From sequence record PZ476263.1: DNA of 64,000 bases; one strand, given 5' to 3'. Both the position numbers and the translations under genes were made by a program. The notes below the pieces were generated by a model that saw only the letters and a program-made list of their open reading frames with translations, had not been told where the DNA came from and searched no databases. The stretch's first letter is position 1. Every line of letters begins with the position of its first letter. Shown one piece after another: positions 24,876-64,000 of the stretch. Origin of the DNA: a phage.

Positions 24876-26594
24876 TTTACGACGGCCTGTATTCGTTATT
24901 CCAGTATAACGTGCAGGTAATTTACCGTCCACCGCAAGTCGAGGATGGTTTAACCAACCTGTATCTACTTTATCCTCTTTCAAAGGATCAAGAACACTTC
25001 GACGGTTACGAAGAGATAGCCATTTTACAATCTGCTTTGCCATATCACCATCGACTCGCTCAAGGTTAGGACAAAGGCCCTGCTGATCCTTAAGCTGCGG
25101 TGATGTTGGTAATGCTCTTGCCTTCTTCCTGAAGAACTTATACATCTTCTCTTTATCTTGCCACTGCTTACCACTGATACCTAAACTTTTCAGAATCAGA
25201 TCGCGATATTCAGTCTGGTCAAGATCATCAATGTATTGACGAACAATGATATCGACTTCGTTATCGGGACGTTGTTTCTTAAACTGGTCCTTCGTCGCAT
25301 CTTTGGTTCGCCACAATGTTGGGACCCAACCCGCATCACGAATAAGGAATTTTTTAACGTCATCCTGATTACCAATACGCATCGGAATCATAATATCCGG
25401 CATCTTTTGATCTTTGATATCCATCAATGCACGGGCCATGTCTTCCGGTGGCAAAGGTACAAGATTTTCCTTTTTCACATTTTGAGAACGAATAAATTCA
25501 GCCATTTTGGATTCATCTTCTACACCATGCTCTACACAATACTTAATTGCAGCAGATGTGAGTGAACCATCGCCCTTAAACGGCTTACTTGGAGCGCCTT
25601 TAAATTCAAGAGCTTCCCAATTCACATTGTAACCTAACTTCTCTAACCATTTCCAGCCCGTACCAGAAAGAGATCCATCTCCTTTAAACGGCTTAGACGG
25701 GAAAGTAGGCTGTGCTGACTTGGACATCTCTTTCTTCGGCAGCTTTGGTTCAACCTCTTCTTCAATTTCTTTCATCATCGTATCAATACGATCACGCAAA
25801 GCTAAACCTTTCTCCACGTCGAAAGTAACACCCTGAATTTCTTGCTCAACCATCAAATAGTCGGTAAGCATACCTCGACGCAAGGCATTCTTCCAATTGA
25901 TGAGCTTCATCTTCTTCGGATCTTTGTCCGATTCATCTTTGTACATGAAACGTTTATCATCCGGCATAGAGTCACATGAAATTTCTTTCATGAGGGCATC
26001 CCATACCATTTCGTTGATGATTACGTCTTCAATAATACGATCACAATATTTCCACAAAGGGAGTCCACGCCAATCTTCGATTGCTACCTTCTGGTTTGCT
26101 ACTCGCATACCCCAAGCTTCAAGTCCATGAGGGCCTACAGGCTTCATTTTACCTGTAACTGGGTTCTTTACCATCTCGGGACAACCGCGCGGCAGAGGGC
26201 GATCTGGATACAGTGTACGGGACATTGAAAGGGTATCGAAGATGTTAACTTGTTTACCATTGATAGTCCCCATGCAACCAGGGTCTGCAAACATATCGTA
26301 TGTTGTTCCAAACATCTTTTTAAACAGCTGTAAGTCATAGCCGAAGATATTATGGATAGCAACAGCTTTTGGTTCAGTCACAAACCACTCATTAAGTTCT
26401 TCCAACTTACGGATCTTAAAGTTCTTACCTTTGGATTGAATAAACTTAACCGCTTGCTCGTAGCCTTCGCGGTTCGGATCGATAAAAATATTCCAATTGT
26501 CCTTTTTGTACTCTTTAAAAAGAACACAGTGAACAAGATCAACTTCTGTCAACAGGCCGTTAGCCTCTGCATCTCCAATAAACAAACCTTTCAT
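24858..26594 (-). CDS. DNA polymerase, family A (T7 gp5-like), 5' exon: 3'-5' exonuclease domain plus N-terminal part of polymerase domain
   Basis: FIGDAEANGL (Exo I), GPHGLEAWGMRV and GWVPT match T7 gp5 landmarks as recalled; ends ...TGRRKHTVVN just before the conserved PNL(Q)xIP region; last codons and stop probably intron-encoded. Confidence 0.85.
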   Translation of the reverse strand: MKGLFIGDAEANGLLTEVDLVHCVLFKEYKKDNWNIFIDPNREGYEQAVKFIQSKGKNFKIRKLEELNEWFVTEPKAVAIHNIFGYDLQLFKKMFGTTYDMFADPGCMGTINGKQVNIFDTLSMSRTLYPDRPLPRGCPEMVKNPVTGKMKPVGPHGLEAWGMRVANQKVAIEDWRGLPLWKYCDRIIEDVIINEMVWDALMKEISCDSMPDDKRFMYKDESDKDPKKMKLINWKNALRRGMLTDYLMVEQEIQGVTFDVEKGLALRDRIDTMMKEIEEEVEPKLPKKEMSKSAQPTFPSKPFKGDGSLSGTGWKWLEKLGYNVNWEALEFKGAPSKPFKGDGSLTSAAIKYCVEHGVEDESKMAEFIRSQNVKKENLVPLPPEDMARALMDIKDQKMPDIMIPMRIGNQDDVKKFLIRDAGWVPTLWRTKDATKDQFKKQRPDNEVDIIVRQYIDDLDQTEYRDLILKSLGISGKQWQDKEKMYKFFRKKARALPTSPQLKDQQGLCPNLERVDGDMAKQIVKWLSLRNRRSVLDPLKEDKVDTGWLNHPRLAVDGKLPARYTGITNTGRRKHTVVN

Positions 26595-52886: not shown

Positions 52887-52946
52887 TTGACAGCAAGAAA
52901 GTAAACAAGTATATTACACACATAGCGGCGGCAATGATGCAACCGC
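52887..52946 (+). promoter_or_regulatory. sigma70-like promoter plus conserved 5' leader hairpin
   Basis: TTGACA 52887-52892, 17 nt, TATATT 52910-52915; leader hairpin GCGG...CCGC 52925-52946. Confidence 0.6.
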
Positions 52947-52968
52947 AAGACAAAGAGAGATTATCAAG

Positions 52969-53184
52969 ATGGCTAAAGTAACTTTTAAAAAATCCCATAC
53001 CGTTTCCAATGTTGCAGCTGTAAACATGACTATGCCAACTTATAAAACACGCGACGCAGCTCGCAAGGTGGCAACGAAGATCCGCAGTGCTGGCTTGTCT
53101 GTCACGCAGCCTGTAAAAACGGAAAACGGTTGGCAATTGAATGTTAAGCATGTTGGCGGTACTCTTACAATCAACAAAGGCTAA
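52969..53184 (+). CDS. hypothetical small basic protein
   Basis: 71-aa ORF. Confidence 0.55.
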   Translation: MAKVTFKKSHTVSNVAAVNMTMPTYKTRDAARKVATKIRSAGLSVTQPVKTENGWQLNVKHVGGTLTINKG

Positions 53185-53254
53185 TAATAATACTAATCTT
53201 TCATAGCCGGATCGCTGGTCCGGCAAATAACCAACAATATAAAAGGAAACAAAG

Positions 53255-53407
53255 ATGGCTTATTCCAACAACGTAGAAAAAATCAAAGCAAACAAAGATC
53301 GTAAAGCCTGGAATGAAACGGTGATCCGTAAAGGTGCAAAACTGAATAAGACCAAACGTGATCGCACTGATAAACGTGCCTTTGTTGAAATGGAAACAGA
53401 GATCTAA
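53255..53407 (+). CDS. hypothetical small basic protein (not in ORF track)
   Basis: 50-aa ORF with RBS AAAGGAAA. Confidence 0.4.
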   Translation: MAYSNNVEKIKANKDRKAWNETVIRKGAKLNKTKRDRTDKRAFVEMETEI

Positions 53408-53408
53408 C

Positions 53409-53699
53409 ATGAAAAAATTTATTATCGGCGCGGCGGCGGTGTTTCTTTCCTTGAATTGCCAGGCTAATGATACAAAATATCTAAGATGTAACGCCGTCAT
53501 GACCGATGAACAATCAGGGAACACGTTTAAAAAGCCGTTCGAAATAAATCCGGCTGCATTTAATGACGGTGTATTCTACCAAAAGAAAGGGAAAGGCAGT
53601 ACAACGATCTACTATGACGCATCAAAAAACCGAGGGGATATCAGTATCATGGTTGGCCCTGAGGTTGTAGTGTCCGGTTACTTCTCCTGTGAGAAATAA
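53409..53699 (+). CDS. small secreted protein
   Basis: N-terminal signal peptide MKKFIIGAAAVFLSLNCQA; start placed at 53409 (track ORF starts 53358). Confidence 0.5.
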   Translation: MKKFIIGAAAVFLSLNCQANDTKYLRCNAVMTDEQSGNTFKKPFEINPAAFNDGVFYQKKGKGSTTIYYDASKNRGDISIMVGPEVVVSGYFSCEK

Positions 53700-53703
53700 A
53701 GCA

Positions 53704-53732
53704 AGGCCCCTCCCCTGGGGCCTTTTTCTTTT
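53704..53732 (+). terminator. rho-independent terminator
   Basis: AGGCCCC-tccc-ctGGGGCCT hairpin followed by TTTTTCTTTT. Confidence 0.7.
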
Positions 53733-53760
53733 ATGTCCCCCAAAATATTTAAAAATGTTG

Positions 53761-53788
53761 TTGACAGTAAAATTGATTCTGATAAGAT
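53761..53788 (+). promoter_or_regulatory. sigma70-like promoter driving ncRNA-like element copy 1
   Basis: TTGACA 53761-53766, 16 nt, TAAGAT 53783-53788. Confidence 0.55.
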
Positions 53789-53794
53789 GTATCC

Positions 53795-53869
53795 CATCAG
53801 GACGGGGAACGAAGTAAACACTTCCCGTTAAGTAGTCCAGGAGTAAGACATACGAAAAACTCCCCTGAT
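53795..53869 (+). ncRNA. candidate small structured RNA, copy 1
   Basis: No ORF; outer ATCAGG/CCTGAT pairing and inner ACGGGGA/UCCCGU hairpin; near-identical second copy at 56493-56569 with a different loop. Confidence 0.45.
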
Positions 53870-53887
53870 AAAAAGATTTAAAAGTGG

Positions 53888-53942
53888 TTGACAAGAAATT
53901 AAAAACTGTTAAGATGTATCACATAGGGCGGCAATGAGGCCG
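53888..53942 (+). promoter_or_regulatory. sigma70-like promoter plus leader hairpin
   Basis: TTGACA 53888-53893, TAAGAT 53910-53915, hairpin GCGGC-aatgag-GCCGC 53926-53942. Confidence 0.6.
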
Positions 53943-53965
53943 CAGATAACAAAGAGATAAAGAAA

Positions 53966-54337
53966 ATGGCTAAAAATATCAATGTTGCAATGTACGCTGA
54001 ATCCACCAACGCAGATAATGTAAAATTTAAAATTAGCGAGATTGAAGCGGTTCACATTTTGGCTAAACGTTGGTTTCAATCTTCATACGGTAATACTTAT
54101 TTCTCTTTGTCTGTTGATATCGAGATCAGCGGTAAAATGATTGAAGTGGTAAACGTGCCGTTCCAATATGGCTACGGGGATCACTTTGACACTGTGGCAA
54201 TGGAAGAATTTAGCAAGGTTATTGATATGGAAAGTAAAGAATTTTTAAAAGGTAATTACCTGACACGTTTTTGTAAAGATAATGATGTATCTGTTTACTG
54301 CAATGCAGTTGATGTAAAACGTAAAAAAGATTTATAA
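53966..54337 (+). CDS. hypothetical small protein
   Basis: 123-aa ORF. Confidence 0.55.
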   Translation: MAKNINVAMYAESTNADNVKFKISEIEAVHILAKRWFQSSYGNTYFSLSVDIEISGKMIEVVNVPFQYGYGDHFDTVAMEEFSKVIDMESKEFLKGNYLTRFCKDNDVSVYCNAVDVKRKKDL

Positions 54338-54343
54338 TTGTTG

Positions 54344-54404
54344 TTGACAAGATAATTAAAAAGCGTAGAATGTACAACATAGAGGGCGGGAATGGTTCCC
54401 GCCT
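54344..54404 (+). promoter_or_regulatory. sigma70-like promoter plus leader hairpin
   Basis: TTGACA 54344-54349, TAGAAT 54366-54371, hairpin GGCGGGAA...TTCCCGCC 54384-54404. Confidence 0.6.
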
Positions 54405-54425
54405 CACTAAAAAGAGATTAAAATC

Positions 54426-54650
54426 ATGGCTATTATCACCACCAAAATCACAAATACTGTTGGCGAGTCTTTTGTAGTTGCATTTATCACCAATCAACCT
54501 GTTGATGATATTCATTGCACTGTCAACAATTTTGCAGAAAATAATTTTGGTCAATGGTCATCTGTTGAGTACATTGAAACGGTCCAGGTTGCAGCGTTCA
54601 AGGTTAGCCAACATGTTGATTATATTGTTGCACTTGATGAATTAAATTAA
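54426..54650 (+). CDS. hypothetical small protein
   Basis: 74-aa ORF. Confidence 0.5.
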   Translation: MAIITTKITNTVGESFVVAFITNQPVDDIHCTVNNFAENNFGQWSSVEYIETVQVAAFKVSQHVDYIVALDELN

Positions 54651-54657
54651 AAAGTAG

Positions 54658-54714
54658 TTGCAAACAATCTTAAAAAGCGTATAATGTTTTACATAGAGCG
54701 GGAACTATTCCCGC
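54658..54714 (+). promoter_or_regulatory. sigma70-like promoter plus leader hairpin
   Basis: TTGCAA 54658-54663, TATAAT 54680-54685, hairpin GCGGGAA...TTCCCGC 54698-54714. Confidence 0.6.
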
Positions 54715-54736
54715 CAGATATAACGAGGAAAGTGTA

Positions 54737-54979
54737 ATGGAAACCATTTTAATCAAAGACACTGCAACTACTGTTACTTATGATAATGATTGTATTATCC
54801 CTGGTACTGATTACGGCGAACGTGTACCCGTTCAAGTCGAGATTGACACTACATACATTGACCAGGCTGAAAAGTGTATCACTATTGTTATTGGTGAATA
54901 TCGTTTTCTACCAGAAGAGATCCAAAAATGGCAGTATATGATTGACCGTTCGAAATTAGTTGCACAAAGTTTAAAATAA
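54737..54979 (+). CDS. hypothetical small acidic protein
   Basis: 80-aa ORF. Confidence 0.5.
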   Translation: METILIKDTATTVTYDNDCIIPGTDYGERVPVQVEIDTTYIDQAEKCITIVIGEYRFLPEEIQKWQYMIDRSKLVAQSLK

Positions 54980-54982
54980 TAC

Positions 54983-55042
54983 TTGCAATTAGTTTTCAGT
55001 ACTGTACAATGTTTTACATCGAGAGCGGTAGTATTGCCGCTC
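54983..55042 (+). promoter_or_regulatory. sigma70-like promoter plus leader hairpin
   Basis: TTGCAA 54983-54988, TACAAT 55005-55010, hairpin GAGCGG...CCGCTC 55023-55042. Confidence 0.6.
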
Positions 55043-55062
55043 ACAGCAAAGAGAAATCTAAA

Positions 55063-55305
55063 ATGAAAAAATTATCTTCCATCGTCAATCATAATGAAAT
55101 TTTCATTAATGAAAAATCCTACGCATGCATTCAACTAAAAGAGATGAAAGGTGATCGCCGTGTAACTGTCGTTCGCAAAGTTAAAAGTAAGCCTTTTAGT
55201 AATTACTCTATCGATACCGTTCGCATCAATAACGAAGATTATTTGATCGATAGTCAAATAACTTGCAGTCCCACAGCTTCAGTTAGTGCACCATATCACT
55301 ATTGA
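55063..55305 (+). CDS. hypothetical small protein
   Basis: Start placed at ATG 55063 downstream of promoter/hairpin (track starts 55009). Confidence 0.5.
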   Translation: MKKLSSIVNHNEIFINEKSYACIQLKEMKGDRRVTVVRKVKSKPFSNYSIDTVRINNEDYLIDSQITCSPTASVSAPYHY

Positions 55306-55330
55306 CAGAAGGGCCGAGAGGCCCTATAAT
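55302..55330 (+). promoter_or_regulatory. consensus sigma70 promoter with GC hairpin in spacer
   Basis: TTGACA 55302-55307, 17-nt spacer containing GGGCC-gaga-GGCCC, TATAAT 55325-55330. Confidence 0.6.
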
Positions 55331-55364
55331 ACAAACCACCTTAACAAAGAATGAGAGAAACAAA

Positions 55365-55571
55365 ATGATTAATGAAAAACAGATTAACGATGTTCGTGAT
55401 GAGGCTTACTGTACTGCTATTACCAATGGATCACGCGCCGCTTTCAATCTTGTTGTTGACTTGTACCCTGAGCAAGCCGAAAACATTCTTTACCAAGTCA
55501 GTGTAAAGTTGGAAGCAACCGGACACACAAAGTTATCAAACGGAATTGACAAGTTGATCAAAACACTTTAA
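55365..55571 (+). CDS. hypothetical small protein
   Basis: Start placed at ATG 55365 (MINEKQ) after the promoter; track ORF starts 55302. Confidence 0.5.
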   Translation: MINEKQINDVRDEAYCTAITNGSRAAFNLVVDLYPEQAENILYQVSVKLEATGHTKLSNGIDKLIKTL

Positions 55572-55653
55572 TATCTGGTTAACTTTTATCAATGCCGTCG
55601 TTATAGTGGCGGCATGAATAAAAGAAATCATTCTACAACGTAAAGGTTGAAAA

Positions 55654-55965
55654 ATGGATCAAGTCATCCCAATGATAGGTTTAATCGGCTTAGGCTACAT
55701 CGCTACCAGTTTAGCTATGAGTTACATCAATAAGAGAAGAGATAAAATGTTTTGTTACTTTGAATATACTTACAACGGTAAAACAGGGTCATCCCGTGAC
55801 TATGGCCCAATGTTAGAGATTGATGCGGTTGGTGCTATGCGGTATCGAGAGAGCTTAGGGGCAAAGATAACGTTTGAAGTATACCGATCTACCGAAGAGG
55901 AATTATTTTCGATCATTGATGAACGTGCTTACATGCAAGAGCAACAAGATAAACGCCGTAAATAA
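55654..55965 (+). CDS. small membrane-anchored protein
   Basis: 103 aa; N-terminal hydrophobic helix IPMIGLIGLGYIATSLAM. Confidence 0.5.
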   Translation: MDQVIPMIGLIGLGYIATSLAMSYINKRRDKMFCYFEYTYNGKTGSSRDYGPMLEIDAVGAMRYRESLGAKITFEVYRSTEEELFSIIDERAYMQEQQDKRRK

Positions 55966-56014
55966 TTAATATTGTAAATAATTAACAAATCAAACAACAA
56001 GCAAGGTAAACATA

Positions 56015-56158
56015 ATGAATACAAATATTAACCGTGAGAAAGTAAAAAGCAAAAACAAAATGGACTATGAAGAAGTAAAAGCAATGAAGAAAAGCAAAGA
56101 TAACAAACAACAACGCCGCAGGACGCGCTACAGTTGGGAAAACATAGACATCCTTTAA
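56015..56158 (+). CDS. hypothetical small basic protein (not in ORF track)
   Basis: 47-aa Lys/Arg-rich ORF. Confidence 0.35.
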   Translation: MNTNINREKVKSKNKMDYEEVKAMKKSKDNKQQRRRTRYSWENIDIL

Positions 56159-56190
56159 GATTGTATAAGTTGAAACATAAATCATCACAA

Positions 56191-56217
56191 AGGCCCTTTA
56201 AGGGCCTTATTTCATTG
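56191..56217 (+). terminator. rho-independent terminator
   Basis: AGGCCC-ttta-AGGGCCT hairpin followed by T-rich tract. Confidence 0.6.
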
Positions 56218-56227
56218 GAGGGAATAC

Positions 56228-56455
56228 ATGATTAATCCATATAGCTTAACAGAGTTGATCCGACTTCTGAAATCTAAGCCGCTAGGGACGGCTTATACTT
56301 ATATTGTGATGGAGGGTAAGGATTATGCAGGGGTAAGCCGATCTATCACGGCAACGGCCTCTAGGGAGGGCCTAAAGGTGAGTATTTCGCAGATCCTTAT
56401 TGTTGATCCTTCCACATGTGAGACGAAAGAAGCTGTAAAAATAATTAGAAAATAG
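56228..56455 (+). CDS. hypothetical small protein
   Basis: 75 aa, RBS GGAGGG. Confidence 0.5.
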   Translation: MINPYSLTELIRLLKSKPLGTAYTYIVMEGKDYAGVSRSITATASREGLKVSISQILIVDPSTCETKEAVKIIRK

Positions 56456-56458
56456 TAT

Positions 56459-56486
56459 TGACACTGTATTGGAATAGTGTAGAATT
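56459..56486 (+). promoter_or_regulatory. sigma70-like promoter driving ncRNA-like element copy 2
   Basis: TTGACA 56459-56464, 16 nt, TAGAAT 56481-56486. Confidence 0.55.
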
Positions 56487-56492
56487 TATTAC

Positions 56493-56569
56493 ATCAGGAC
56501 GGGGAACAAAAACAAATAGTTCCCCGTTAAGTAGCCCAGGAGTAAGGCAGACGAAAAACTCCCCTGATA
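56493..56569 (+). ncRNA. candidate small structured RNA, copy 2
   Basis: Same element as 53795-53869; perfect ACGGGGAA/TTCCCCGT stem; loop differs while stems are conserved. Confidence 0.45.
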
Positions 56570-56576
56570 AAAAGAT

Positions 56577-56604
56577 TGACAACAAATAGTAAATAAGTAC
56601 AATA
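56577..56604 (+). promoter_or_regulatory. sigma70-like promoter
   Basis: TTGACA 56577-56582, 16 nt, TACAAT 56599-56604. Confidence 0.55.
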
Positions 56605-56654
56605 AGACTTAATGAGACGGGCAAAGGTCCAAAACAACAACAAGGTAACTTATC

Positions 56655-56891
56655 ATGATTGAACAAATCAAAACTACTAAACCAAATTTTAACGGTGATG
56701 TTTCTCACTTTATTGGTGACAATGAAAGAGGAACACCCTACGCTGCGGTAACAGTTCAGCCAAATGGTGATTATTGGTTTACCTTGTACGGGTCTTATTC
56801 CTTTGGACGTTCGGCACATGAAAAGATCTTACAAGTAGTTAAGCCTACAGGAAAGAACATCACGGCAGAAAAATATTTTACTAAACATTAA
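56655..56891 (+). CDS. hypothetical small protein
   Basis: 78-aa ORF. Confidence 0.5.
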   Translation: MIEQIKTTKPNFNGDVSHFIGDNERGTPYAAVTVQPNGDYWFTLYGSYSFGRSAHEKILQVVKPTGKNITAEKYFTKH

Positions 56892-56898
56892 AAAGTAC

Positions 56899-56956
56899 TT
56901 CCAAACTAAGTTTAAAAGCGTATAATGTTTTACATCAAGAGCGGCAAGGGCCGCTC
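56899..56956 (+). promoter_or_regulatory. sigma70-like promoter plus leader hairpin
   Basis: TTCCAA (weak -35) 56899-56904, TATAAT 56921-56926, hairpin GAGCGGC-aagg-GCCGCTC 56939-56956. Confidence 0.55.
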
Positions 56957-56978
56957 ACACAAACAAAGAGAAATTATC

Positions 56979-57230
56979 ATGACTAACAAAACTAAAACTA
57001 CTAAAACTTATAACGGTCACAAAAACAAAACTCATTGGAATGTTTCCTTATGGATTAATAACGGTGAGTCATTGTATCGGCTTGCTCAAAATTGCATCGC
57101 TCAAAGTAAAACGAAAGATATTGCGGCGGAATGTATGTACCGCAGATTAAAAGCCAACGGTACTACTACAACGCCGGACGGATTCAAGTATAGCACTACG
57201 GCGATCCGTGCTGCAATGGTTGGAATGTAA
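56979..57230 (+). CDS. hypothetical small basic protein
   Basis: Start placed at ATG 56979 downstream of promoter/hairpin (track starts 56925). Confidence 0.5.
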   Translation: MTNKTKTTKTYNGHKNKTHWNVSLWINNGESLYRLAQNCIAQSKTKDIAAECMYRRLKANGTTTTPDGFKYSTTAIRAAMVGM

Positions 57231-57286
57231 CATTCAATACTGAGTTAATGGCGGGATTAGTTCCCGCCTTTGCGGAGAAATATCTA

Positions 57287-57574
57287 ATGAGCAAAGTAAT
57301 TGACTATAAAGTGTTAACTAAATCATTGTCAATCAGTGAGTGCAACGATGGTTTTTGGATGTACGATGAAACACGCGGCATGAATCTAGCTATGAAGGCT
57401 AAAACGGCTGAGGCGGCGTATGTGCAAGCCCTGGAATACTACCAGAGACGTTTAAAGGAAGTAGAAAACAATTATCAGAATCTCAAAGAGAAAGTAGATC
57501 ATTTCGTTGGTCAATTCGTTGACGATGACGAGGAAGACGGGCACTACTGCAACCGCTGCGGATCTTACAATTAA
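57287..57574 (+). CDS. hypothetical small protein
   Basis: Start placed at ATG 57287 after leader hairpin GGCGGGAttagTTCCCGCC (57250-57268); track starts 57248. Confidence 0.45.
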   Translation: MSKVIDYKVLTKSLSISECNDGFWMYDETRGMNLAMKAKTAEAAYVQALEYYQRRLKEVENNYQNLKEKVDHFVGQFVDDDEEDGHYCNRCGSYN

Positions 57575-57596
57575 ATAAATAAATAAATAAAAAAGT

Positions 57597-57658
57597 TTGA
57601 CAACGTTTTAAATTAGTGTAATATGTATCACATAGAGCGGTGGAATGGTCTACCGCTC
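57597..57658 (+). promoter_or_regulatory. sigma70-like promoter plus leader hairpin
   Basis: TTGACA 57597-57602, TAATAT 57619-57624, hairpin GAGCGGT...ACCGCTC 57635-57658. Confidence 0.6.
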
Positions 57659-57678
57659 ACAAATAAGAGATTATCAAA

Positions 57679-57858
57679 ATGACTATCATCGCAAAAACTG
57701 AAATAATCGGCCTGGATTCTATCATCATGACGTTTGAAGAACAAAAAGGTATGTATGTAGTTTCCTATAGTAATTATGTTCGGGAGTATGAAACGGTAGA
57801 CGAAGCCTTTGAAAGTTACATTCGTCAGGTGAATAAAGCATACGACGACTACCGCTAA
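57679..57858 (+). CDS. hypothetical small protein (not in ORF track)
   Basis: 59-aa ORF directly downstream of promoter/hairpin. Confidence 0.45.
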   Translation: MTIIAKTEIIGLDSIIMTFEEQKGMYVVSYSNYVREYETVDEAFESYIRQVNKAYDDYR

Positions 57859-57945
57859 AATATATTACCAGTACTATTAAAGATATTGACAATGTTTGAT
57901 AGTACTGTATGATTGATTTTATCAAGACTCCTAAAGGATCACAAA

Positions 57946-58089
57946 ATGAAAATTTGCCAATGTGGTAAAAAGTCTATCCCTGGTTTAAAACGTGGTGTTT
58001 CTCTTTGTCAGTATCATTATAATGTTAAAATATGGGGTAAACAGTGGGCCGACCAAGTGGAAGCATCAAAGAAAGTAAAAAGTAATTAA
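57946..58089 (+). CDS. hypothetical small Cys-containing protein (not in ORF track)
   Basis: 47-aa ORF MKICQCGKK...CQYHY; promoter TTGACA/TATGAT upstream. Confidence 0.35.
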   Translation: MKICQCGKKSIPGLKRGVSLCQYHYNVKIWGKQWADQVEASKKVKSN

Positions 58090-58180
58090 AATATTTAAAC
58101 AGTTGACATTGGTTTATGTGGTCGGGTACAATGACCACATAGACAAATGAAACAAACAATATAAATTAACGAGGTTTATC

Positions 58181-58492
58181 ATGATCTTTGAAGTTTTTGC
58201 GGGTATGTGTTTTTATGGTGCTGCCGCCGTTCGTCAATGCGATGATTATGTAGTTGAATCATATAATGATGTTTTAACTTGTGAGATCGTAACTAGTGAA
58301 TACTCACGGGATCGCCGTTGGATTAATCCAGCCTGTATCGACTCTCTGGAAGCTATGCCAGAAGGTCAAGAATTAACAGAAGAAGAAACAGAAGAGGTTA
58401 GAGAGGTATTATCTTACATGCTCGATAACTTAGATTCTAGTGCACTGCAAAGAATGTATGCAGTAGCACAAGAAAGCGAACTGACCAACTGA
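58181..58492 (+). CDS. hypothetical small acidic protein
   Basis: 103-aa ORF; promoter TTGACA/TACAAT with hairpin ATGTGGTC...GACCACAT over the -10. Confidence 0.5.
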   Translation: MIFEVFAGMCFYGAAAVRQCDDYVVESYNDVLTCEIVTSEYSRDRRWINPACIDSLEAMPEGQELTEEETEEVREVLSYMLDNLDSSALQRMYAVAQESELTN

Positions 58493-58519
58493 CCAAAACA
58501 GATAACAAGGTAAACAAAA

Positions 58520-58702
58520 ATGAAAGCATCAATGATGGTTGCAACTGTAAACATTATCATAGGTAACGGCACGGGACACCATGAGATCATAAAAAACAAG
58601 GCTTACAGCCTTGCAACCTTAAAGGCGGATATGCGCTTATCCCTGGGGCAAATCAAAGCTTACTTTCGTGAAGGTCATCACAAAAAGGTAGTAAATTCTT
58701 AA
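58520..58702 (+). CDS. hypothetical small protein
   Basis: 60-aa ORF. Confidence 0.45.
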   Translation: MKASMMVATVNIIIGNGTGHHEIIKNKAYSLATLKADMRLSLGQIKAYFREGHHKKVVNS

Positions 58703-58721
58703 AATATTTCTTTACTTGTGG

Positions 58722-58750
58722 GCCTATCTTCTTTAAGATAGGCTTTATCA
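58722..58750 (+). terminator. rho-independent terminator
   Basis: GCCTATCTT-cttt-AAGATAGGC hairpin followed by T-rich tract. Confidence 0.55.
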
Positions 58751-58782
58751 GTTTTAGAATACACAAACAAAGAGGGTACAAA

Positions 58783-59076
58783 ATGAAAAAGGCAAATCAA
58801 TATTTCTTCCTGAATGCCGTTAATGATCATATCGTTGTTAGCATGTTGGTTAATTCGAATCCAATGATGCTAACATTTTGTGACGAGGCATACACTTTAC
58901 CAAAACATAAAAAAGCATTTTTAAAAGTGGTTGCAACTCCAAATAAAACAGGGTATATTCTTGACTATAAGGTCACAGAAGGTCAGAAAGTGATTGCAGT
59001 CGGTGAAAGCACCGAGATCCCTAAGGATGAGATCTACGGCGTGATCGCTGGTTTTGTGAATGCAGTGTTTGAATAA
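58783..59076 (+). CDS. hypothetical small protein
   Basis: 97 aa, RBS AGAGGG. Confidence 0.5.
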   Translation: MKKANQYFFLNAVNDHIVVSMLVNSNPMMLTFCDEAYTLPKHKKAFLKVVATPNKTGYILDYKVTEGQKVIAVGESTEIPKDEIYGVIAGFVNAVFE

Positions 59077-59102
59077 TCATACAACCATAAAGAGACAAGA
59101 TC

Positions 59103-59324
59103 ATGAATAAAGTAACTGAATTTTTATATCAATCATTGGCAACTTTACTGTTTACCGTTGCAGGTATCGCCCTTATCAGTGGTGTTGGTGCAATGTTTAT
59201 CGGTTACTTCACTTTTACCGCTATTACTTTCATCGTTTGTCCTGTAATGGCATACGCCGCTACAAAAATTGTAATCTATGTGGATGATAAAATTTATCCT
59301 AAAAAGTCATTGCATACTAAGTAA
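59103..59324 (+). CDS. small membrane protein
   Basis: 73 aa, two hydrophobic helices. Confidence 0.5.
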   Translation: MNKVTEFLYQSLATLLFTVAGIALISGVGAMFIGYFTFTAITFIVCPVMAYAATKIVIYVDDKIYPKKSLHTK

Positions 59325-59387
59325 GATTAAAGTATATTACATACATTGAAGCGGTGAACGGTTCACCGCACAAAAAGAGTAAATAAA

Positions 59388-59540
59388 ATGTTTAAGTTAA
59401 TAACCTGGGAACATCAATCATCTTCACCAATCACCCGCACCTTTTTTGATCTGTGTACCGCTTATCGTTTAGCTAAAGGTGGTTACTATAAAGCCCAGAT
59501 TATTGATGAAAACAATGTAATACTGTACGAATTCAAATAA
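59388..59540 (+). CDS. hypothetical small protein (not in ORF track)
   Basis: 50-aa ORF downstream of leader hairpin GCGGTGAAC...GTTCACCGC (59349-59370). Confidence 0.4.
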   Translation: MFKLITWEHQSSSPITRTFFDLCTAYRLAKGGYYKAQIIDENNVILYEFK

Positions 59541-59742
59541 AAAACTTTAAAAAAGTAGTTGACACGAATAACAGATAGTATATAATTACTATCAACAAGA
59601 CGGGAAACAGGTTCCCCACTAAATAATCTTACAGGAGTCCGTAAAATGATGGCAATCTTCTTAATCTCTCTTCTGGTCGCTGTTTCTTCTGCAACTGCTG
59701 CCGCTGTTCTGTATGATACCCGTTACAATGAGAACTGATAAA

Positions 59743-59970
59743 ATGCTAAACATGAAAAACGTTGTCGGAAAGACTGAGACACTAAAAGCGCTTAATCCTG
59801 GTCAATCAACGGTGTGGATCTGCACTGAGGCCGGAAAGGTCGAAAGAGATATGAGATTATTTACTGCGACCGCTTGCAGATTAAAATTTAAGATTGTTCA
59901 AAGTAGCGCGATGATTGTAAAGGTAAATGATTTACCAGTAGAATCCATTATTATTACCCGTATAGAGTGA
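59743..59970 (+). CDS. hypothetical small protein
   Basis: Start uncertain (ATG 59713 or 59743); a 30-codon hydrophobic mini-ORF (59647-59738) lies upstream. Confidence 0.45.
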   Translation: MLNMKNVVGKTETLKALNPGQSTVWICTEAGKVERDMRLFTATACRLKFKIVQSSAMIVKVNDLPVESIIITRIE

Positions 59971-59982
59971 AAGAGGCCATAA

Positions 59983-60291
59983 ATGTATAAAGACTATATT
60001 TTCAACGATAAATATAACAATGTGATTGAAATCAGCGAACAATCGAAAGATGCGGCGGTAAATCGTATCGGGCAAGTTTTAGGATTATCAGCAAAGGATC
60101 TTATTCTAGTGCATGATCTTATTCTAGTGCATGAGTCTGATAATCCTGATTACCTGGCTGCAAGGGATAGCGGCTTGAATCATGAGTCTGCAATAGAGGT
60201 CGCAAATGGTGAGATATCACTAGATGACGCTCTCGGGGCAATGGATATGGTTAGCGAGTGTAATTTTATGCTTATGGAGGCTTCAAAATGA
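59983..60291 (+). CDS. hypothetical small acidic protein
   Basis: 102 aa; internal 22-bp perfect direct repeat (aggatcttattctagtgcatga twice, 60095-60138). Confidence 0.5.
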   Translation: MYKDYIFNDKYNNVIEISEQSKDAAVNRIGQVLGLSAKDLILVHDLILVHESDNPDYLAARDSGLNHESAIEVANGEISLDDALGAMDMVSECNFMLMEASK

Positions 60292-60480
60292 ATCCTAACG
60301 GCCTTGAATTTAAAGCTATTCCCAACCTTGCCGGATTGCGTAACAAATCGGCACGAAATCAAAGAAGATTGGAGAAAAAGAAGAATAATAGAAAATAATT
60401 GTTGACACCCTTCCTTAAATCCTTTAAATTGCTCCACATAGGGCGGCAATAGTGCCGCTCACTAATCTGGAGTTATCACC

Positions 60481-60882
60481 ATGACTTTTACAATCCTTTC
60501 TTATGCTGACGTAGCAAACATCGCTAAAACTTTTGGACCTCGGGCACTGGAATATGCCGTATCTAATGGTAATCTGACAAAGGAGCAATGCTACCTGATC
60601 GGCAGTTGTAAACGTTGGGCGGTATCCCGTAACATCGAGATTGAAAACGTTAATGATGGGAATATCGAGTACACTGTTGATGCCGTATTCCAATCTATTG
60701 ACCTGGGCGGTATCTATAATACCAATCTTAACGATGTTCGTATTATCCGCACTGGCTTCGGTGCTTATGATGTATCTATCCGTGAAGCTATGGACAAGGG
60801 ATACATTAGCAAGGATCAATTAGCTTACATCATGCAACAAACTAAGGAACGTAACGAAGTAAAGGCTATCTTAGGCTTGTAA
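60481..60882 (+). CDS. hypothetical protein
   Basis: 133-aa ORF downstream of promoter TTGACA plus leader hairpin GCGGCA...TGCCGC. Confidence 0.55.
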   Translation: MTFTILSYADVANIAKTFGPRALEYAVSNGNLTKEQCYLIGSCKRWAVSRNIEIENVNDGNIEYTVDAVFQSIDLGGIYNTNLNDVRIIRTGFGAYDVSIREAMDKGYISKDQLAYIMQQTKERNEVKAILGL

Positions 60883-60900
60883 TCCGGTAGTCAGCTTACA

Positions 60901-60926
60901 AGGCCCCTTCATGGGGCCTTTCTTTT
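60901..60926 (+). terminator. rho-independent terminator
   Basis: AGGCCCC-ttcat-GGGGCCT hairpin followed by TTCTTTT. Confidence 0.7.
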
Positions 60927-60969
60927 ATGTGTTGAGCAAAAATAAATTAAAAATAATTCAAAAAGACTA

Positions 60970-60997
60970 TTGACTCAACCGCAAAAAAGGGTAGAAT
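60970..60997 (+). promoter_or_regulatory. sigma70-like promoter driving long ORF-free leader
   Basis: TTGACT 60970-60975, 16 nt, TAGAAT 60992-60997. Confidence 0.55.
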
Positions 60998-61003
60998 GTA
61001 TTA

Positions 61004-61287
61004 CATCAAGACGATGAAGCAGCGATGTAAAGTAGTCGCCCTGGTGAGTAAGTTCGGTGAAGGTTAATCGACCTAAGTAACCGAAAGTTAGTAAGGATAA
61101 GGACTCTGGGATTGAATACGTCATAGACGGGCTACACTATCCAGTCAGTGAAGAGGTCGGCTGAGCAATGACCCTACGGCTTTACGAAGACCGTGCTATC
61201 CTGTGACTAACAACAAAAACAGTAAAAAGCAGTAAGAAACACAAAGTAAAGAATTTTAATCAAATCACAAAATAAAAGGTTGACATC
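61004..61287 (+). ncRNA. candidate structured RNA / long 5' leader (about 280 nt, ORF-free)
   Basis: Promoter-proximal region with no ORF over 17 codons; many local stem-forming segments; the TTGACA at 61279 is too close to the ATG to serve the downstream gene, so 61288 is probably transcribed through this leader. Confidence 0.4.
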
Positions 61288-61527
61288 ATGCAAACGATCA
61301 TTACTAAGTTTTTGGCCCCTACTAATACCCGTTGCGCTCGCATCATTGCAAAATGCTGGTTGACAAATATCACGATTGCTTATCCAGTAGCGGAGATCAA
61401 CGAAGCCCACAAAATTGCAGCTCAGCAATTGATCGTTAAGTTAAAGATGACGACGGGCAATGATTGGAATATCGTTGCAAGTGGTGAAACACCGGACGGA
61501 TCAGGTTATGCATTTATCATCAAATAA
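61288..61527 (+). CDS. hypothetical small protein
   Basis: 79 aa, RBS AAAGG. Confidence 0.5.
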   Translation: MQTIITKFLAPTNTRCARIIAKCWLTNITIAYPVAEINEAHKIAAQQLIVKLKMTTGNDWNIVASGETPDGSGYAFIIK

Positions 61528-61609
61528 GTGTTGACAAGCTAGGTAATAAATAGTAAATTGATGTTCTGGCGGCGCAACGGTGCACGGCATAGGTTAAGGA
61601 CCAATTATC

Positions 61610-61996
61610 ATGAAAACAGAAATCATTATTGAAATCATCAACGGTTATAAAGAAGCCTTTATCTTTGCTGAATCAGCCAGGGATCATGAAGGTAATTTTA
61701 TAGAGAACATGACTGATTATGAATTTTCAGATCAAGCCCAGCAACGGATCATTCGTGACGTGGCGGCTTTTTGTGATGCCAATGATGCCGCTATCTCTGA
61801 GGCAATGAGCGACGGCGCAACAGCCAACCAGATCGGGAATGATTTACATTTTACCCGTAACGGTCACGGCGTAGGCTTTTGGGATCGCCCTGAAATATAC
61901 ACCACTAACACGGCTAACCGCTTAACTAATGCGGCTAAGTTTATGCCAGATGTGACGGCTTACATTCGTGAAGATAATTTGATTTATATTGAATAA
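61610..61996 (+). CDS. hypothetical acidic protein
   Basis: 128-aa ORF; promoter TTGACA/TAAATT upstream. Confidence 0.55.
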   Translation: MKTEIIIEIINGYKEAFIFAESARDHEGNFIENMTDYEFSDQAQQRIIRDVAAFCDANDAAISEAMSDGATANQIGNDLHFTRNGHGVGFWDRPEIYTTNTANRLTNAAKFMPDVTAYIREDNLIYIE

Positions 61997-62079
61997 AAGT
62001 ATTGACACAGATCGGCATTGTGCTATGATTTACCACGTAGGGCGGCAATATCGCCGCCTCAATCAAAGGAAGTAAAACC

Positions 62080-62379
62080 ATGAATCAGACCACTTTAATT
62101 TCTTCTCTTCTTTCTTATGACGATGACCGCCTGAGCAACGGATCACTTTTTGATGCTATTACCTTTGAATCCTCAAAGATTGGTGCAAGCGTTCTTAAAT
62201 TTGCATATCTTGAAAATTACGAAATCAATCAGATTCGTTTGAACATCCTGGATAGCATTACCACTGAGGAAGGCGTAAAGGTTAGCAAGGCCGCAAGCAA
62301 GGAAGGTAAAACGTTTATCATTGTTGATTATCTCGATATCTATGGGGATAAGGCCAGTAAGTATTTTATTGCACAATAA
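62080..62379 (+). CDS. hypothetical small protein
   Basis: 99-aa ORF downstream of TTGACA/TATGAT plus leader hairpin GGCGGC...GCCGCC. Confidence 0.55.
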   Translation: MNQTTLISSLLSYDDDRLSNGSLFDAITFESSKIGASVLKFAYLENYEINQIRLNILDSITTEEGVKVSKAASKEGKTFIIVDYLDIYGDKASKYFIAQ

Positions 62380-62390
62380 AGGAAAACATC

Positions 62391-62582
62391 ATGACCGTTG
62401 ATCAAGTTAGAAAGGTTTTAGCAGCGTTGCGCTATCACAACCACAGCAAGGTAAAGAATGATCCTGATTATCTGGATTCATCATTGGAAGAGGATACCTT
62501 GCAAGCTATAAGCCATATGCAAACAATGCTTAAGCGTATGACTGAGAAAAACAGATCAGATTATATTGGCGATAAGATTTAA
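62391..62582 (+). CDS. hypothetical small protein
   Basis: 63-aa ORF. Confidence 0.45.
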   Translation: MTVDQVRKVLAALRYHNHSKVKNDPDYLDSSLEEDTLQAISHMQTMLKRMTEKNRSDYIGDKI

Positions 62583-62670
62583 AAAGTACTTGCATTGTAC
62601 TTAGAATCAAGTATAATGTTTTATATCGAGAGGGGGGAAACGGTTCTCCCTGATAATAAGGAATAAAATC

Positions 62671-62874
62671 ATGACTGCTGCTAACCGCCTGATCGCCGTC
62701 CTGAATAAAGCAAAAACTAACCTTTTAGACGTTCAAATCAAAGAACAGGCGAACGGTGAGATTCTCGCCACGGTATCCGATGGCGGTTACATATCAGAGT
62801 CATTCACTACCGATAATCTGGATCATCTTGTCTGGAAATTAGAAATTATCGTAGAGGATATGCAAATCATCTAA
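62671..62874 (+). CDS. hypothetical small protein
   Basis: 67-aa ORF downstream of TTGCAT/TATAAT plus GC hairpin. Confidence 0.5.
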   Translation: MTAANRLIAVLNKAKTNLLDVQIKEQANGEILATVSDGGYISESFTTDNLDHLVWKLEIIVEDMQII

Positions 62875-62883
62875 TCATTGCAA

Positions 62884-62907
62884 AGGCCCTTCGGGGCCTT
62901 TCTTGTT
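62884..62907 (+). terminator. rho-independent terminator ending the small-gene cluster
   Basis: AGGCCC-ttcg-GGGCCT hairpin followed by TTCTTGTT. Confidence 0.7.
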
Positions 62908-62912
62908 ATCGG

Positions 62913-62986
62913 TGTCACTCCCCCAACCTATATAAACCTTCCTATCCTATTCCTCCCATCAATCCACAACCTAACCCAACCGTTTG
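62913..62986 (+). repeat. G-depleted tract on + strand
   Basis: About 70 consecutive nt with no G (tcactcccccaacctatataaaccttcctatcc...). Confidence 0.6.
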
Positions 62987-63278
62987 GATTATCTAATCAT
63001 CAATACCTATAAAATCTTATACTATATCACAATAGCTTTTCCCTTGTCCACAATAATTATGAAAGAGAACCATTGCCAGAATATCGAGAGGGTGGCGCGA
63101 CCGTAGGGAGCGACACTATAAAACGAGTATACCCTCCTACCGCTATGCGGTCATCGGTGATAACCGATATCGTTACACGCTATCTGTTCTCTTCGTTTCC
63201 TCGTTTTATAGTGTCTATCAGTTAAACAAAATTAGTCTTTGTCAATTATTATTTCACTTATTCCCAAAATAAATTGGC

Positions 63279-63362
63279 TGTAGTTACTATTGAATGTAGC
63301 AATAGTTCAAATGATTGTAGTAATAGTTCAACTGAATGTAGTAATAGTTAAAATGATTGTAT
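63279..63362. repeat. tandem 21-bp direct repeats (about 3.5 copies)
   Basis: tgaatgtagcaatagttcaaa / tgattgtagtaatagttcaac / tgaatgtagtaatagttaaaa / tgattgtat. Confidence 0.7.
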
Positions 63363-64000
63363 ATTCACTTTATTTGAATATGTAATCAATAGGGTTGCTT
63401 ATACCATAGATGATTAGTAGTGTCAACAGGTAATTATTGTTCGCAAAGAGATAGAGATTGTTTATTCTTTGTCCACAATGAAGGTCGTAAGGGCACTTAT
63501 AGCATGGTTTTCTTTACCTTTGCTTGATAAAGCACGCTTCTCTCTTCTTGTCAAATAAAAATTTATTTTTTCTTTCTTGCCAGAATATCGAGGGTGACTT
63601 GCCCCAATGTTGGGAGGGCCGTCGGTCGTGGAATCTATCAAGTTGGAATGATTCGACCTGCAACCTTTATTGTTGGGATAGTCACGTCTGTAATCGTCCC
63701 AAACCAGGCGGGGCGCGGAGTAGGGGAGTAGTCGGGTCGTCAGTCAATCCATTTTGGCAACTGGTCCGGCTTAGTGCGTATAAGTTGTATTATGTTAAAT
63801 GCAGATCGAAATCGGTATTCTAAATCAGATTCAGAAGTCAATAGAAATCTTTAACTTTATTGTTGGAAGGGCACAACATTTTTCTTGACAAGTCGAATCA
63901 AAGATGTATTGTGGATTGAAAATAAATGAAGATAATGCTTGACTTCTTGGATATTTTGAAAACATCGGACCCCCCTCCCCCTCCCCCGAGAGCGGCGTGC

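Follow-up and report, generated by a model that had tools for sequence, protein, structure and literature searches.

Portable promoter–hairpin cassettes in the small-gene cluster of an rV5-like phage

The stretch of phage DNA analyzed here (64,000 nucleotides of sequence record PZ476263.1, hereafter the window) contains, between 52.9 and 62.7 kb on the plus strand, a run of about 30 small open reading frames (ORFs) of 30–133 aa each. Analysis of this cluster revealed a well-supported family of portable early-gene expression cassettes, in which a sigma70-type promoter is followed by a G+C-rich hairpin, a ribosome-binding site and the ATG of a small gene. The nearest known system is the promoter-early stem-loop (PeSL) cassette of T4-type phages, and the unit is best placed as a PeSL-like variant with a new, well-supported RNA motif. 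The explanation that we favor, with confidence and doubt in about equal measure, is that these are mobile early cassettes, whose leader hairpin would act in cis, independently of any partner, as a stabilizer or insulator, and which would also serve as recombination linkers. Early timing is suggested by the strong host-type promoters, the small ORFan genes and the location of cassettes in terminal repeats of jumbo relatives.

The source of the window is a large myovirus of the rV5-like (Vequintavirinae-type) group, and the Vequintavirinae were its nearest relatives by megablast. The first 24 kb, containing tail fibre, baseplate and DNA polymerase genes, shows about 80% nucleotide identity to Escherichia phage A7_1 and relatives, with no match among jumbo or Stephanstirmvirinae phages; nor did the window's virion and replication portion match the Justusliebigvirus and Asteriusvirus jumbo groups by megablast. 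The 9.8-kb cluster gave patchy nucleotide matches, at 85–92%, to 158 phage records. Ten of its largest ORFs belong to PHROG families of unknown function only, with no informative Pfam domain besides DUF7249; the gene containing this domain (56979–57230) is the most widely shared among these clusters.

Layout of the unit and its promoter class

Each cassette spans about 90 bp, from the preceding stop codon to the next ATG. The order of elements is an A-rich, UP-like tract, TTGACA or TTGCAA, 16–17 nt, a TATAAT-like hexamer, 5–6 nt, the motif CAT(A/C)(G/A)A(G), the G+C hairpin, an A-rich spacer with AGAG or GAGG, and the ATG. The original prediction had described sigma70-type promoters followed by CAT(A/C)RAG, a GC hairpin, a ribosome-binding site and an ATG before most genes of the cluster. 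The full unit was indeed found at the places described, at 12 promoters (10 solid and two weaker), and the promoters are strong sigma70 matches. Its recurrence was thus borne out, but 'most' overstated it, as the unit precedes about 12 of the roughly 30 small ORFs and 12 of the roughly 20 cluster promoters carry it. The energies of the 12 leader hairpins range from −7 to −17.5 kcal/mol. The copies are as follows, each span beginning at the −35 hexamer.

Cassette 1, 52887..52946, + strand: TTGACA-17-TATATT, CAT, interrupted hairpin at 52925–52946 (−11.5 kcal/mol), before ORF 52969–53184; atypical, weak covariance-model match (E = 3.6)
Cassette 2, 53888..53943, + strand: promoter, CATAGG, hairpin GCGGC-AATGAG-GCCGC at 53928–53943, before ORF 53966–54337; covariance model E = 5e-6
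Cassette 3, 54344..54404, + strand: promoter, CATAGA, hairpin at 54384–54404 (−15.9 kcal/mol), before ORF 54426–54650; non-seed match, E = 1.5e-4
Cassette 4, 54658..54714, + strand: TTGCAA-16-TATAAT, CATAGA, hairpin at 54698–54714, before ORF 54737–54979; non-seed match, E = 6e-5
Cassette 5, 54983..55042, + strand: TTGCAA-16-TACAAT, CATCGA, hairpin at 55023–55042 with one U-G pair, before the ORF starting at 55064; covariance model
Cassette 6, 56899..56956, + strand: TTCCAA-16-TATAAT, CATCAA, hairpin at 56939–56956, before ORF 56979–57230 (DUF7249); covariance model
Cassette 7, 57597..57658, + strand: promoter, CATA, 10-bp hairpin at 57635–57658 (−17.5 kcal/mol), before ORF 57679–57858; non-seed match, E = 1e-6
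Cassette 8, 59310..59369, + strand: TTGCAT-17-TATATT, CATTGAA, hairpin at 59351–59369, before ORF 59388–59540; second covariance model, E = 0.006
Cassette 9 (weak), 59559..59616, + strand: consensus promoter, CAACAAGA, 5-bp hairpin at 59602–59616 (−7 kcal/mol), before ORF 59646–59738; missed by the covariance model
Cassette 10, 60402..60460, + strand: promoter, CATAGG, hairpin GGGCGGCA-ATAG-TGCCGCTC at 60441–60460, before ORF 60481–60882; covariance model, nearly the same hairpin before the A7_1 ortholog
Cassette 11, 62002..62059, + strand: promoter, CGTAGG, hairpin at 62040–62059, before ORF 62080–62379; covariance model
Cassette 12, 62590..62655, + strand: TTGCAT-16-TATAAT, TATCGA, hairpin at 62632–62651 with an outer extension (62624–62655), before ORF 62671–62874; non-seed match, E = 0.037 (second model, E = 1e-4)

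Since aligning entire cassettes with MAFFT left the two arms of the hairpin out of register, a first covariance model, extending from the −10 through the hairpin, was seeded with five in-register copies and the rest were realigned by Infernal. The model was run unfiltered over both strands of the 64 kb. Four non-seed copies in the window were recovered (E = 1e-6 to 0.04), and no match with E < 0.2 was found beyond 53.9–62.7 kb of the plus strand.

The hairpin marks a second sigma70 promoter class within the same phage. Leaders of −9 kcal/mol or below follow 9 of 14 cluster promoters, versus 2 of 28 other strong promoters preceding ORFs (Mann–Whitney p = 0.004). More than 10 near-consensus sigma70 promoters without a hairpin lie on the minus strand at 14–43 kb, before larger replication and metabolism genes. 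Their leaders are about 25 nt long, and CATCAA(C/A) follows the −10 at the spacing found in the cluster. The CAT motif, noted originally as preceding the hairpin, is therefore present there but is not specific to it, and is better regarded as part of the promoter. The distance from −10 to ATG is about 30 nt in the hairpin-less promoters versus about 51 nt in the cluster, so that the hairpin resembles an insert of about 20 nt in a common promoter and leader design.

Within the cluster, the promoters at 57886, 58103 and 55302 lack a leader hairpin. The last of these has a stem-loop between its −35 and −10, as in PeSL cassettes of phage RB49; it is the only promoter in the window with this hairpin-in-spacer layout, and its −35 hexamer contains the TGA stop codon of the upstream ORF. 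Related elements of the cluster are listed below.

Relic, 53206..53224, + strand: CATAG and hairpin GCCGGA..TCCGGC with a degenerate promoter, before ORF 53255–53407; read in the sequence, missed by the covariance model
Promoter-less cassette-type hairpin, 57250..57268, + strand: GGCGGGA-TTAGT-TCCCGCC, between two genes that transfer together; stem kept in A7_1 and PBECO4
Hairpin-less leader, 55302..55330, + strand: perfect TTGACA-17-TATAAT with GC hairpin GGGCCGAGAGGCCC within the spacer, RB49-type PeSL geometry

A (TAAA)n run at 57576–57592 lies immediately upstream of cassette 7.

Pairing and strand bias in the leader hairpin

A second covariance model, comprising 47 copies, was searched against the window, the complete A7_1 genome, and regions of the phages PBECO4 and muut, 285 kb in total. 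This search yielded 61 matches at E < 0.05, all on the sense (coding) strand and within the small-gene clusters of the four phages. Standard pairs occupied 94.5% of cells in these 61 copies, versus 72.9 ± 1.3% in shuffles. All eight stem pairs were changed on both sides, with 104 compensatory cells in all, and sliding the 3' partner as a control reduced pairing to 35–68%. An independent prediction with RNAalifold recovered seven of the eight pairs, and every one of these seven has compensatory changes.

The hairpin also shows a strand preference. There are 24 G-U pairs on the sense strand against six A-C mismatches (the sense-strand form of an antisense G-U pair), and 46 of the 61 copies have a sense fold of greater stability than the antisense fold (Wilcoxon p = 6e-7). 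From phage to phage, the stem before the DUF7249 gene changes completely but keeps its place (GAGCGGCA, CGGCGGCA and GCGGGGGA), as does the stem before the gene at 54737 (GAGCGGGAA and AAGGGGAAA), for which the PBECO4 hairpin differs from that of cassette 4. The compensatory changes, the sense-strand G-U bias and the turnover of stems together indicate that the sense transcript has been selected to form an RNA hairpin, and the covariation and strand results argue against an operator in double-stranded DNA.

A role in DNA with no RNA function, either as a palindromic repressor operator at +4 to +25 or as a cruciform or single-strand hairpin that would itself be the recombination hotspot, is on this evidence very improbable. 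An inverted repeat just past the start occupies a classic roadblock position, and several blocks of homology between phages end at the hairpin. A sequence-specific dimer, however, would not tolerate stems that differ wholly between copies with only their pairing kept; in addition, the spacing of the arms is variable, and the asymmetry between G-T and A-C, together with the greater stability of the sense fold, indicates a single transcribed strand. Still harder to credit is a functionless passenger hairpin kept similar by concerted evolution, through gene conversion between the repeated promoters. High similarity and evident recombination among the cassettes speak for it, as do the promoters at 57886, 58103 and 55302, which work without the hairpin, but compensatory double changes at all eight pairs and the wobble bias imply selection for pairing, and passive homogenization does not fit orthologs whose stems differ entirely at one position.

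The apex is the best conserved part of the hairpin. Loops are mostly of the form A-Y-R-R (ATAG, ATGG, ATGA, ACGG) or YRG (TAG, TGG, CGG), and the loop-closing pair is A-U in 46 of the 61 copies. Stems had been described originally as conserved and loops as differing between copies; over 61 copies the reverse was observed, the stems varying with compensation.

Exchange of modules and distribution among phages

Local BLAST comparison with A7_1 showed the genes of the window in scrambled order. Single genes or gene pairs are 88–92% identical in nucleotide sequence to PBECO4 or muut, and the rest of the genomes is unrelated at such a level. The ends of the homology blocks fall inside cassettes in 24 of 51 cases, with cassettes making up 19.5% of the region (p = 8e-6), and six lie within 7 nt of the predicted +1.

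The gene at 54737–54979 illustrates both sides of an exchanged segment. On its 3' side, the next promoter is common to the window and PBECO4 as far as ...TTTTACAT, after which the two diverge fully at the hairpin, the homology ending at the +1 of cassette 5. On its 5' side, the two are alike from just past the hairpin (TAACGAGGAAAGT.TAATG), with the hairpin and the promoter spacer differing. In these alignments the promoter moves with the upstream gene and the hairpin and leader with the downstream gene, or the hairpin alone is swapped. The unit of exchange is thus roughly [hairpin]-leader-gene-[next promoter], and crossing over takes place at the hairpin or within the conserved promoter. A role of the cassettes as recombination linkers is, on these alignments, well supported but not proven. 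The portable nature of the unit and its position at mosaic boundaries were overlooked in the original prediction.

The first covariance model also found the unit in regions of A7_1, of the 348-kb jumbo phage PBECO4 (Asteriusvirus) and of muut (Justusliebigvirus, Stephanstirmvirinae). With the second model, the complete A7_1 genome gave 15 matches, confined to one stretch of 10.6 kb (9.1–19.7 kb), and 0 in the other 115 kb. The covariance search that had been proposed at the outset across the genome and related phages thus produced further copies in the cluster and in these three phages, and none elsewhere in the 64 kb.

A BLAST search with one cassette against 50,697 phage records matched 51 records, with at most 16 detectable copies each and no T4-type phage among them. 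Asteriusvirus jumbo phages with E. coli or Salmonella hosts made up most of these, and some of them have copies inside annotated direct terminal repeats; the remainder were rV5-like genomes and genomes of Phapecoctavirus size (Stephanstirmvirinae-type). An exact-pattern scan of IMG/VR gave 25 loci, most of them chance matches, and the model matched only 121Q-like contigs of about 350 kb and one 109-kb contig. The coliphage cassette is also present, with 88% identity, in four or five records of about 146 kb labelled 'Campylobacter phage' (MG065639 among them); these resemble rV5/Phapecoctavirus-type coliphages, and the host label may therefore be wrong. Papers on rV5 and on Rak2/121Q-like jumbo phages give sigma70 promoters with UP-like elements and do not mention a leader hairpin, and no prior description of such a hairpin or mapped start sites was found in the literature on rV5-like and 121Q/PBECO4-like phages.

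PeSL cassettes have been described in RB49/phi1, PST/T4 and nt-1/KVP40 (Arbiol et al. 2010, PMC2839356; Comeau et al. 2014, PMC4122927). As in the cassettes here, the space from stop codon to ATG is filled by an AT-rich tract, an early promoter close to the sigma70 consensus, a G/C stem-loop and a Shine-Dalgarno sequence. PeSL cassettes likewise form dense tandem arrays in hyperplastic regions of small ORFan genes (PMC2839356), and mark the boundaries of insertion, replacement and shuffling between related phages. For PeSL cassettes, mini-circles formed by recombination of one cassette with another, and promoter and terminator activity in reporter assays, are part of the described system (PMC2839356). 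All five PeSL subclasses have the stem-loop ahead of the start site: it may fall within the AT tract, across the −35 or −10, between these two hexamers or immediately ahead of +1 (PMC2839356, PMC4122927). The hairpin here, in contrast, occupies a fixed position after the predicted +1, in the leader of its own mRNA, and lacks a U-tract. The hairpins here also form one homologous, covarying family with a conserved apex; their carriers are not T4-type and have no detectable sequence relationship to T4-type phages; and exchange extends across phage families, beyond sister phages. The cassettes further resemble the morons of lambdoid phages (promoter-gene-terminator), which are self-contained, separately transcribed accessory genes that move between phages, but those have neither conserved flanking sequence for exchange nor a conserved leader hairpin.

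Leader geometry, candidate roles and neighboring elements

The +1 was taken as the A (or G) of CAT/CGT, which lies 7–8 nt past the −10 with a pyrimidine at −1, in standard sigma70 geometry. With this assignment, the 59 copies measured have a mean of 3.5 ± 1.8 unpaired 5' nucleotides before the hairpin (0–2 in 12 copies, 3 in 17, 4–5 in 26 and more than 5 in 4; 0–5 in 55 of 59). The stem is G+C-rich and 7–10 bp long, in a hairpin of about 22 nt. From the end of the hairpin to the ATG is 19.1 ± 3.8 nt, and the entire leader is 44.5 ± 3.7 nt. The spacer after the hairpin is 54% A and unstructured and holds the Shine-Dalgarno sequence, which is never sequestered, and the first 8 nt past the stem contain 0–3 T. 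The original placement of the hairpin at the extreme 5' end of each mRNA agrees with this in that the hairpin is within the transcript, 0–5 nt from the predicted 5' end; a purely 5'-terminal block would be borderline. The original interpretation, a stabilizing terminal stem-loop or a shared site for an RNA-binding regulator, is borne out in part, in the position and the RNA nature of the hairpin; both functions are candidates.

In the mobile-cassette explanation, host RNA polymerase would fire the cassette promoters as soon as the DNA enters the cell, and the hairpin would work in cis with no phage-specific partner. It would partly shield the 5' end, limiting 5'-end-dependent attack by RppH and RNase E on locally started transcripts, and could form a 3' barrier for read-through RNA from the upstream gene. 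By folding on itself, it would also keep the downstream ribosome-binding site clear of context effects. With such insulation and protection, any small gene dropped behind a cassette is proposed to be strongly expressed. The 50–60 bp or so of near-identical promoter sequence would meanwhile offer homology for recombination within and between phage genomes, shuffling [hairpin-leader-gene-next promoter] modules. That the cassette is shared by Vequintavirinae-type, Justusliebigvirus and Asteriusvirus phages favors a mechanism without a phage-specific factor.

The leader of T7 gene 10 bears a 5' stem-loop, and in T7, as in the cassettes here, the phage promoter is directly followed by the hairpin. 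Stem-loops in the 5' untranslated regions of ompA and papA stabilize E. coli mRNA, in the account of Emory, Bouvet and Belasco (1992) cited in PMC3997798. In stabilizers of this type, the stem-loop is at the 5' terminus or no more than about 2–4 nt from it, and its removal shortens mRNA half-life. The cassettes resemble them in having a hairpin near the 5' end and, after it, a leader rich in A/U that lacks structure and offers a strong ribosome-binding site. They differ in that effective protection needs almost no single-stranded 5' tail, whereas most copies here have 3–5 nt, and in that those stabilizers are sequence-independent, while the apex here is conserved in sequence although the stems covary freely.

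Several points weigh against a cis-acting stabilizer and linker. RppH and RNase E require at least two unpaired 5' nucleotides and prefer at least three (PMC8833179); most copies have 3–5, enough for both enzymes, so that a classical 5'-terminal block would be partial at best. The start site itself is a prediction from promoter geometry, and a search of the literature on this phage and its relatives found no data on transcription starts, half-lives or expression. The structure was also used to fit the covariance alignment, and G-U has a slight advantage over A-C in the model. The conserved apex (AAYRG, with its A-U closing pair) is unexplained by a purely structural role. Finally, the enrichment of block ends is partly expected, as cassettes are intergenic and mutually homologous.

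In the main alternative, the hairpin would tag its transcripts for recognition by a trans-acting factor, whether an RNA or an RNA-binding protein of phage or host origin, which would co-ordinately control this promoter class. Such a factor might act through early-to-middle shut-off, translational repression, or targeted decay or protection. We consider this possible, though unlikely. It would account for the presence of the hairpin on only one of the two sigma70 promoter and leader classes of the phage, for an apex more conserved than the stems across lineages, with its A-U closing pair, and for the fairly constant hairpin-to-ATG position (19 ± 4 nt). The likeness of the apex could, however, also stem from common descent and gene conversion among cassettes, and in an informal comparison the loops are unlike known operator hairpins (boxB, GNRA-like; MS2, ANYA). 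No candidate binding protein was found, and for the DUF7249 gene at 56979–57230, considered as a candidate trans-factor, no homolog with a solved structure was found. Since the three lineages lack obvious common core genes, the factor would have to be host-encoded or reside within the mobile gene pool.

An ORF-less RNA of about 80 nt, present in all three lineages and beginning with a variant of the same hairpin, is a possible decoy or partner in this alternative. Its copies are as follows.

Copy 1, 53761..53875, + strand: promoter of the same class and RNA (53795–53875); first hairpin is the cassette hairpin with an enlarged loop, cassette 2 directly after
Copy 2, 56458..56572, + strand: promoter and RNA (56492–56572); z = −4.9, promoter at 56576 directly after
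Copies in other records: L001 (A7_1), 10003–10086; L002, 14244–14323 and 24945–25030; L012, 1051–1130; L003, 15309–15385

The RNA shows 84–90% nucleotide identity across A7_1, PBECO4, 121Q and muut. In its predicted fold, a closing helix AUCAGG/CCUGAU encloses two hairpins, with a C-G to U-A covariation beside the CAGGAGUAAG loop, and it may represent a phage early small RNA. A bolder form of the tag idea, which we regard as decidedly unlikely, is that the AAYRG-apex hairpin serves as an address label through which a dedicated trans-acting factor, encoded by host or phage, would co-ordinately switch a horizontally mobile regulon of immediate-early ORFans, with the RNA of about 80 nt as decoy or partner.

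It is also improbable that the hairpin acts as a PeSL-type attenuator or terminator, damping both read-through and its own transcripts and so avoiding over-expression from tandem strong promoters. The PeSL stem-loop has been read as terminating upstream transcription, which was demonstrated for one example: the G/C stem-loop of one RB49/phi1 PeSL lowered expression of a downstream lacZ about as much as rrnB T1 (PMC2839356, PMC4122927). The cassettes here are likewise tandem and dense, and one promoter-less copy is followed by TTT (57250–57271). The 8 nt after the stem, however, contain only 0–3 T in a spacer that is 54% A, and a hairpin downstream of its own start would halt the transcript of its own gene too. 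Five canonical terminators with T-runs already punctuate the cluster, which sets terminators apart as elements distinct from the leader hairpins.

Intrinsic terminators (hairpin and T-run, by terminator scan): 53703–53724 (+), 56190–56208, 58720–58745, 60900–60920 and 62882–62901

Small RNA hairpins are also found in the early leaders of lambdoid phages (nut, with boxA and boxB) and of HK022 (put). These act in antitermination; boxB is a GNRA-like pentaloop with an adjacent boxA, and put comprises two stem-loops in about 70 nt, and neither arrangement is present in the cassettes. There is one hairpin per gene here, in contrast to one or two per operon there, and, unlike in antitermination, the terminators of the cluster look functional, with a new promoter restarting transcription after each. 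Early promoters of phage N4 (PMC4496689) are likewise associated with a short G/C hairpin; these are DNA hairpins upstream of the start that are used by the giant virion RNA polymerase.

Several candidate identities for the hairpin were tried and rejected. A nut or put site was rejected because the loops are A-Y-R-R or YRG and only 0–5 nt precede the hairpin, and an N4-type DNA hairpin promoter because a full sigma70 promoter is present, the hairpin is downstream of the start and the evidence favors RNA. An intrinsic terminator on either strand was rejected for want of a T-run or U-tract, the tail being A-rich. Stems of 7–10 bp were judged too short for an RNase III site, and the consensus of promoters for capping with nicotinamide adenine dinucleotide (NAD) does not fit the sequence around +1. 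An upstream mini-ORF from a loop ATG was rejected because only a subset of loops contains ATG, none with a Shine-Dalgarno sequence, and repetitive extragenic palindromic (REP)-like elements were rejected on geometry and loop sequence.

A strong cassette-type promoter also stands right after a terminator at 60970–61287 (+), followed by about 290 nt without a plus-strand ORF and an ATG at 61288. This stretch is rich in AGUAAG, AAGUAG and AAGGA words. It is no more structured than shuffles (z = 0.43) and, past the promoter, shows no conservation in A7_1. Rfam 15, searched at the gathering score and at E ≤ 1, contained no family for the leader hairpin, the RNA of about 80 nt or the 61.0–61.3 kb leader; in the cluster it gave two sub-threshold, chance-level matches only (E = 0.08 and 0.11). 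An in-frame 21-bp tandem duplication (GATCTTATTCTAGTGCATGAT...) is present at about 60101–60142 (+), within ORF 59983–60291.

Past the last terminator of the cluster, 62900–64000 is a non-coding stretch. It contains 21-bp tandem iterons at 63291–63361, two exact copies of TTGCCAGAATATCGAG 504 bp apart (63073 and 63577), two TTGTCCACAAT boxes, a 21-nt inverted repeat (63112–63132/63195–63215) and, at the window end, a poly-C/poly-purine run. This stretch could be the counterpart of the box marked 'non-coding' on the rV5 map (an origin or genome-end region). Elsewhere in the window, a group I intron (Rfam RF00028, 73.8 bits) at 23647–24952 (−) splits the DNA polymerase gene at 22753–26594. ORF 24858–26594 corresponds to residues 9–585 of the uninterrupted A7_1 polymerase, with 93% identity, and ORF 22753–23646 would be the putative second exon. 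The gap also holds a 311-aa ORF (23665–24600) without relation to the polymerase, which the intron probably encodes.

These cassettes extend the PeSL idea, that a regulatory cassette is also a recombination linker, past T4-type phages to rV5-like, Stephanstirmvirinae and 350-kb Asteriusvirus phages, and near-identical gene modules are shown to move between these families. They also add a cis-acting RNA motif that is new to Rfam, has more than 60 covarying copies and marks one early transcript class. With the covariance model, annotators can readily locate the immediate-early gene sets of large coliphages, which probably serve host takeover or anti-defence, and the compact, naturally optimized promoter-hairpin-ribosome-binding-site unit is one that experimenters could try out. 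If the hairpin were a factor-binding tag, it would reveal a post-transcriptional regulon shared across phage families. If it were an address label, genes exchanged between unrelated families would arrive pre-wired into the same post-transcriptional control, with the label traveling with the module.

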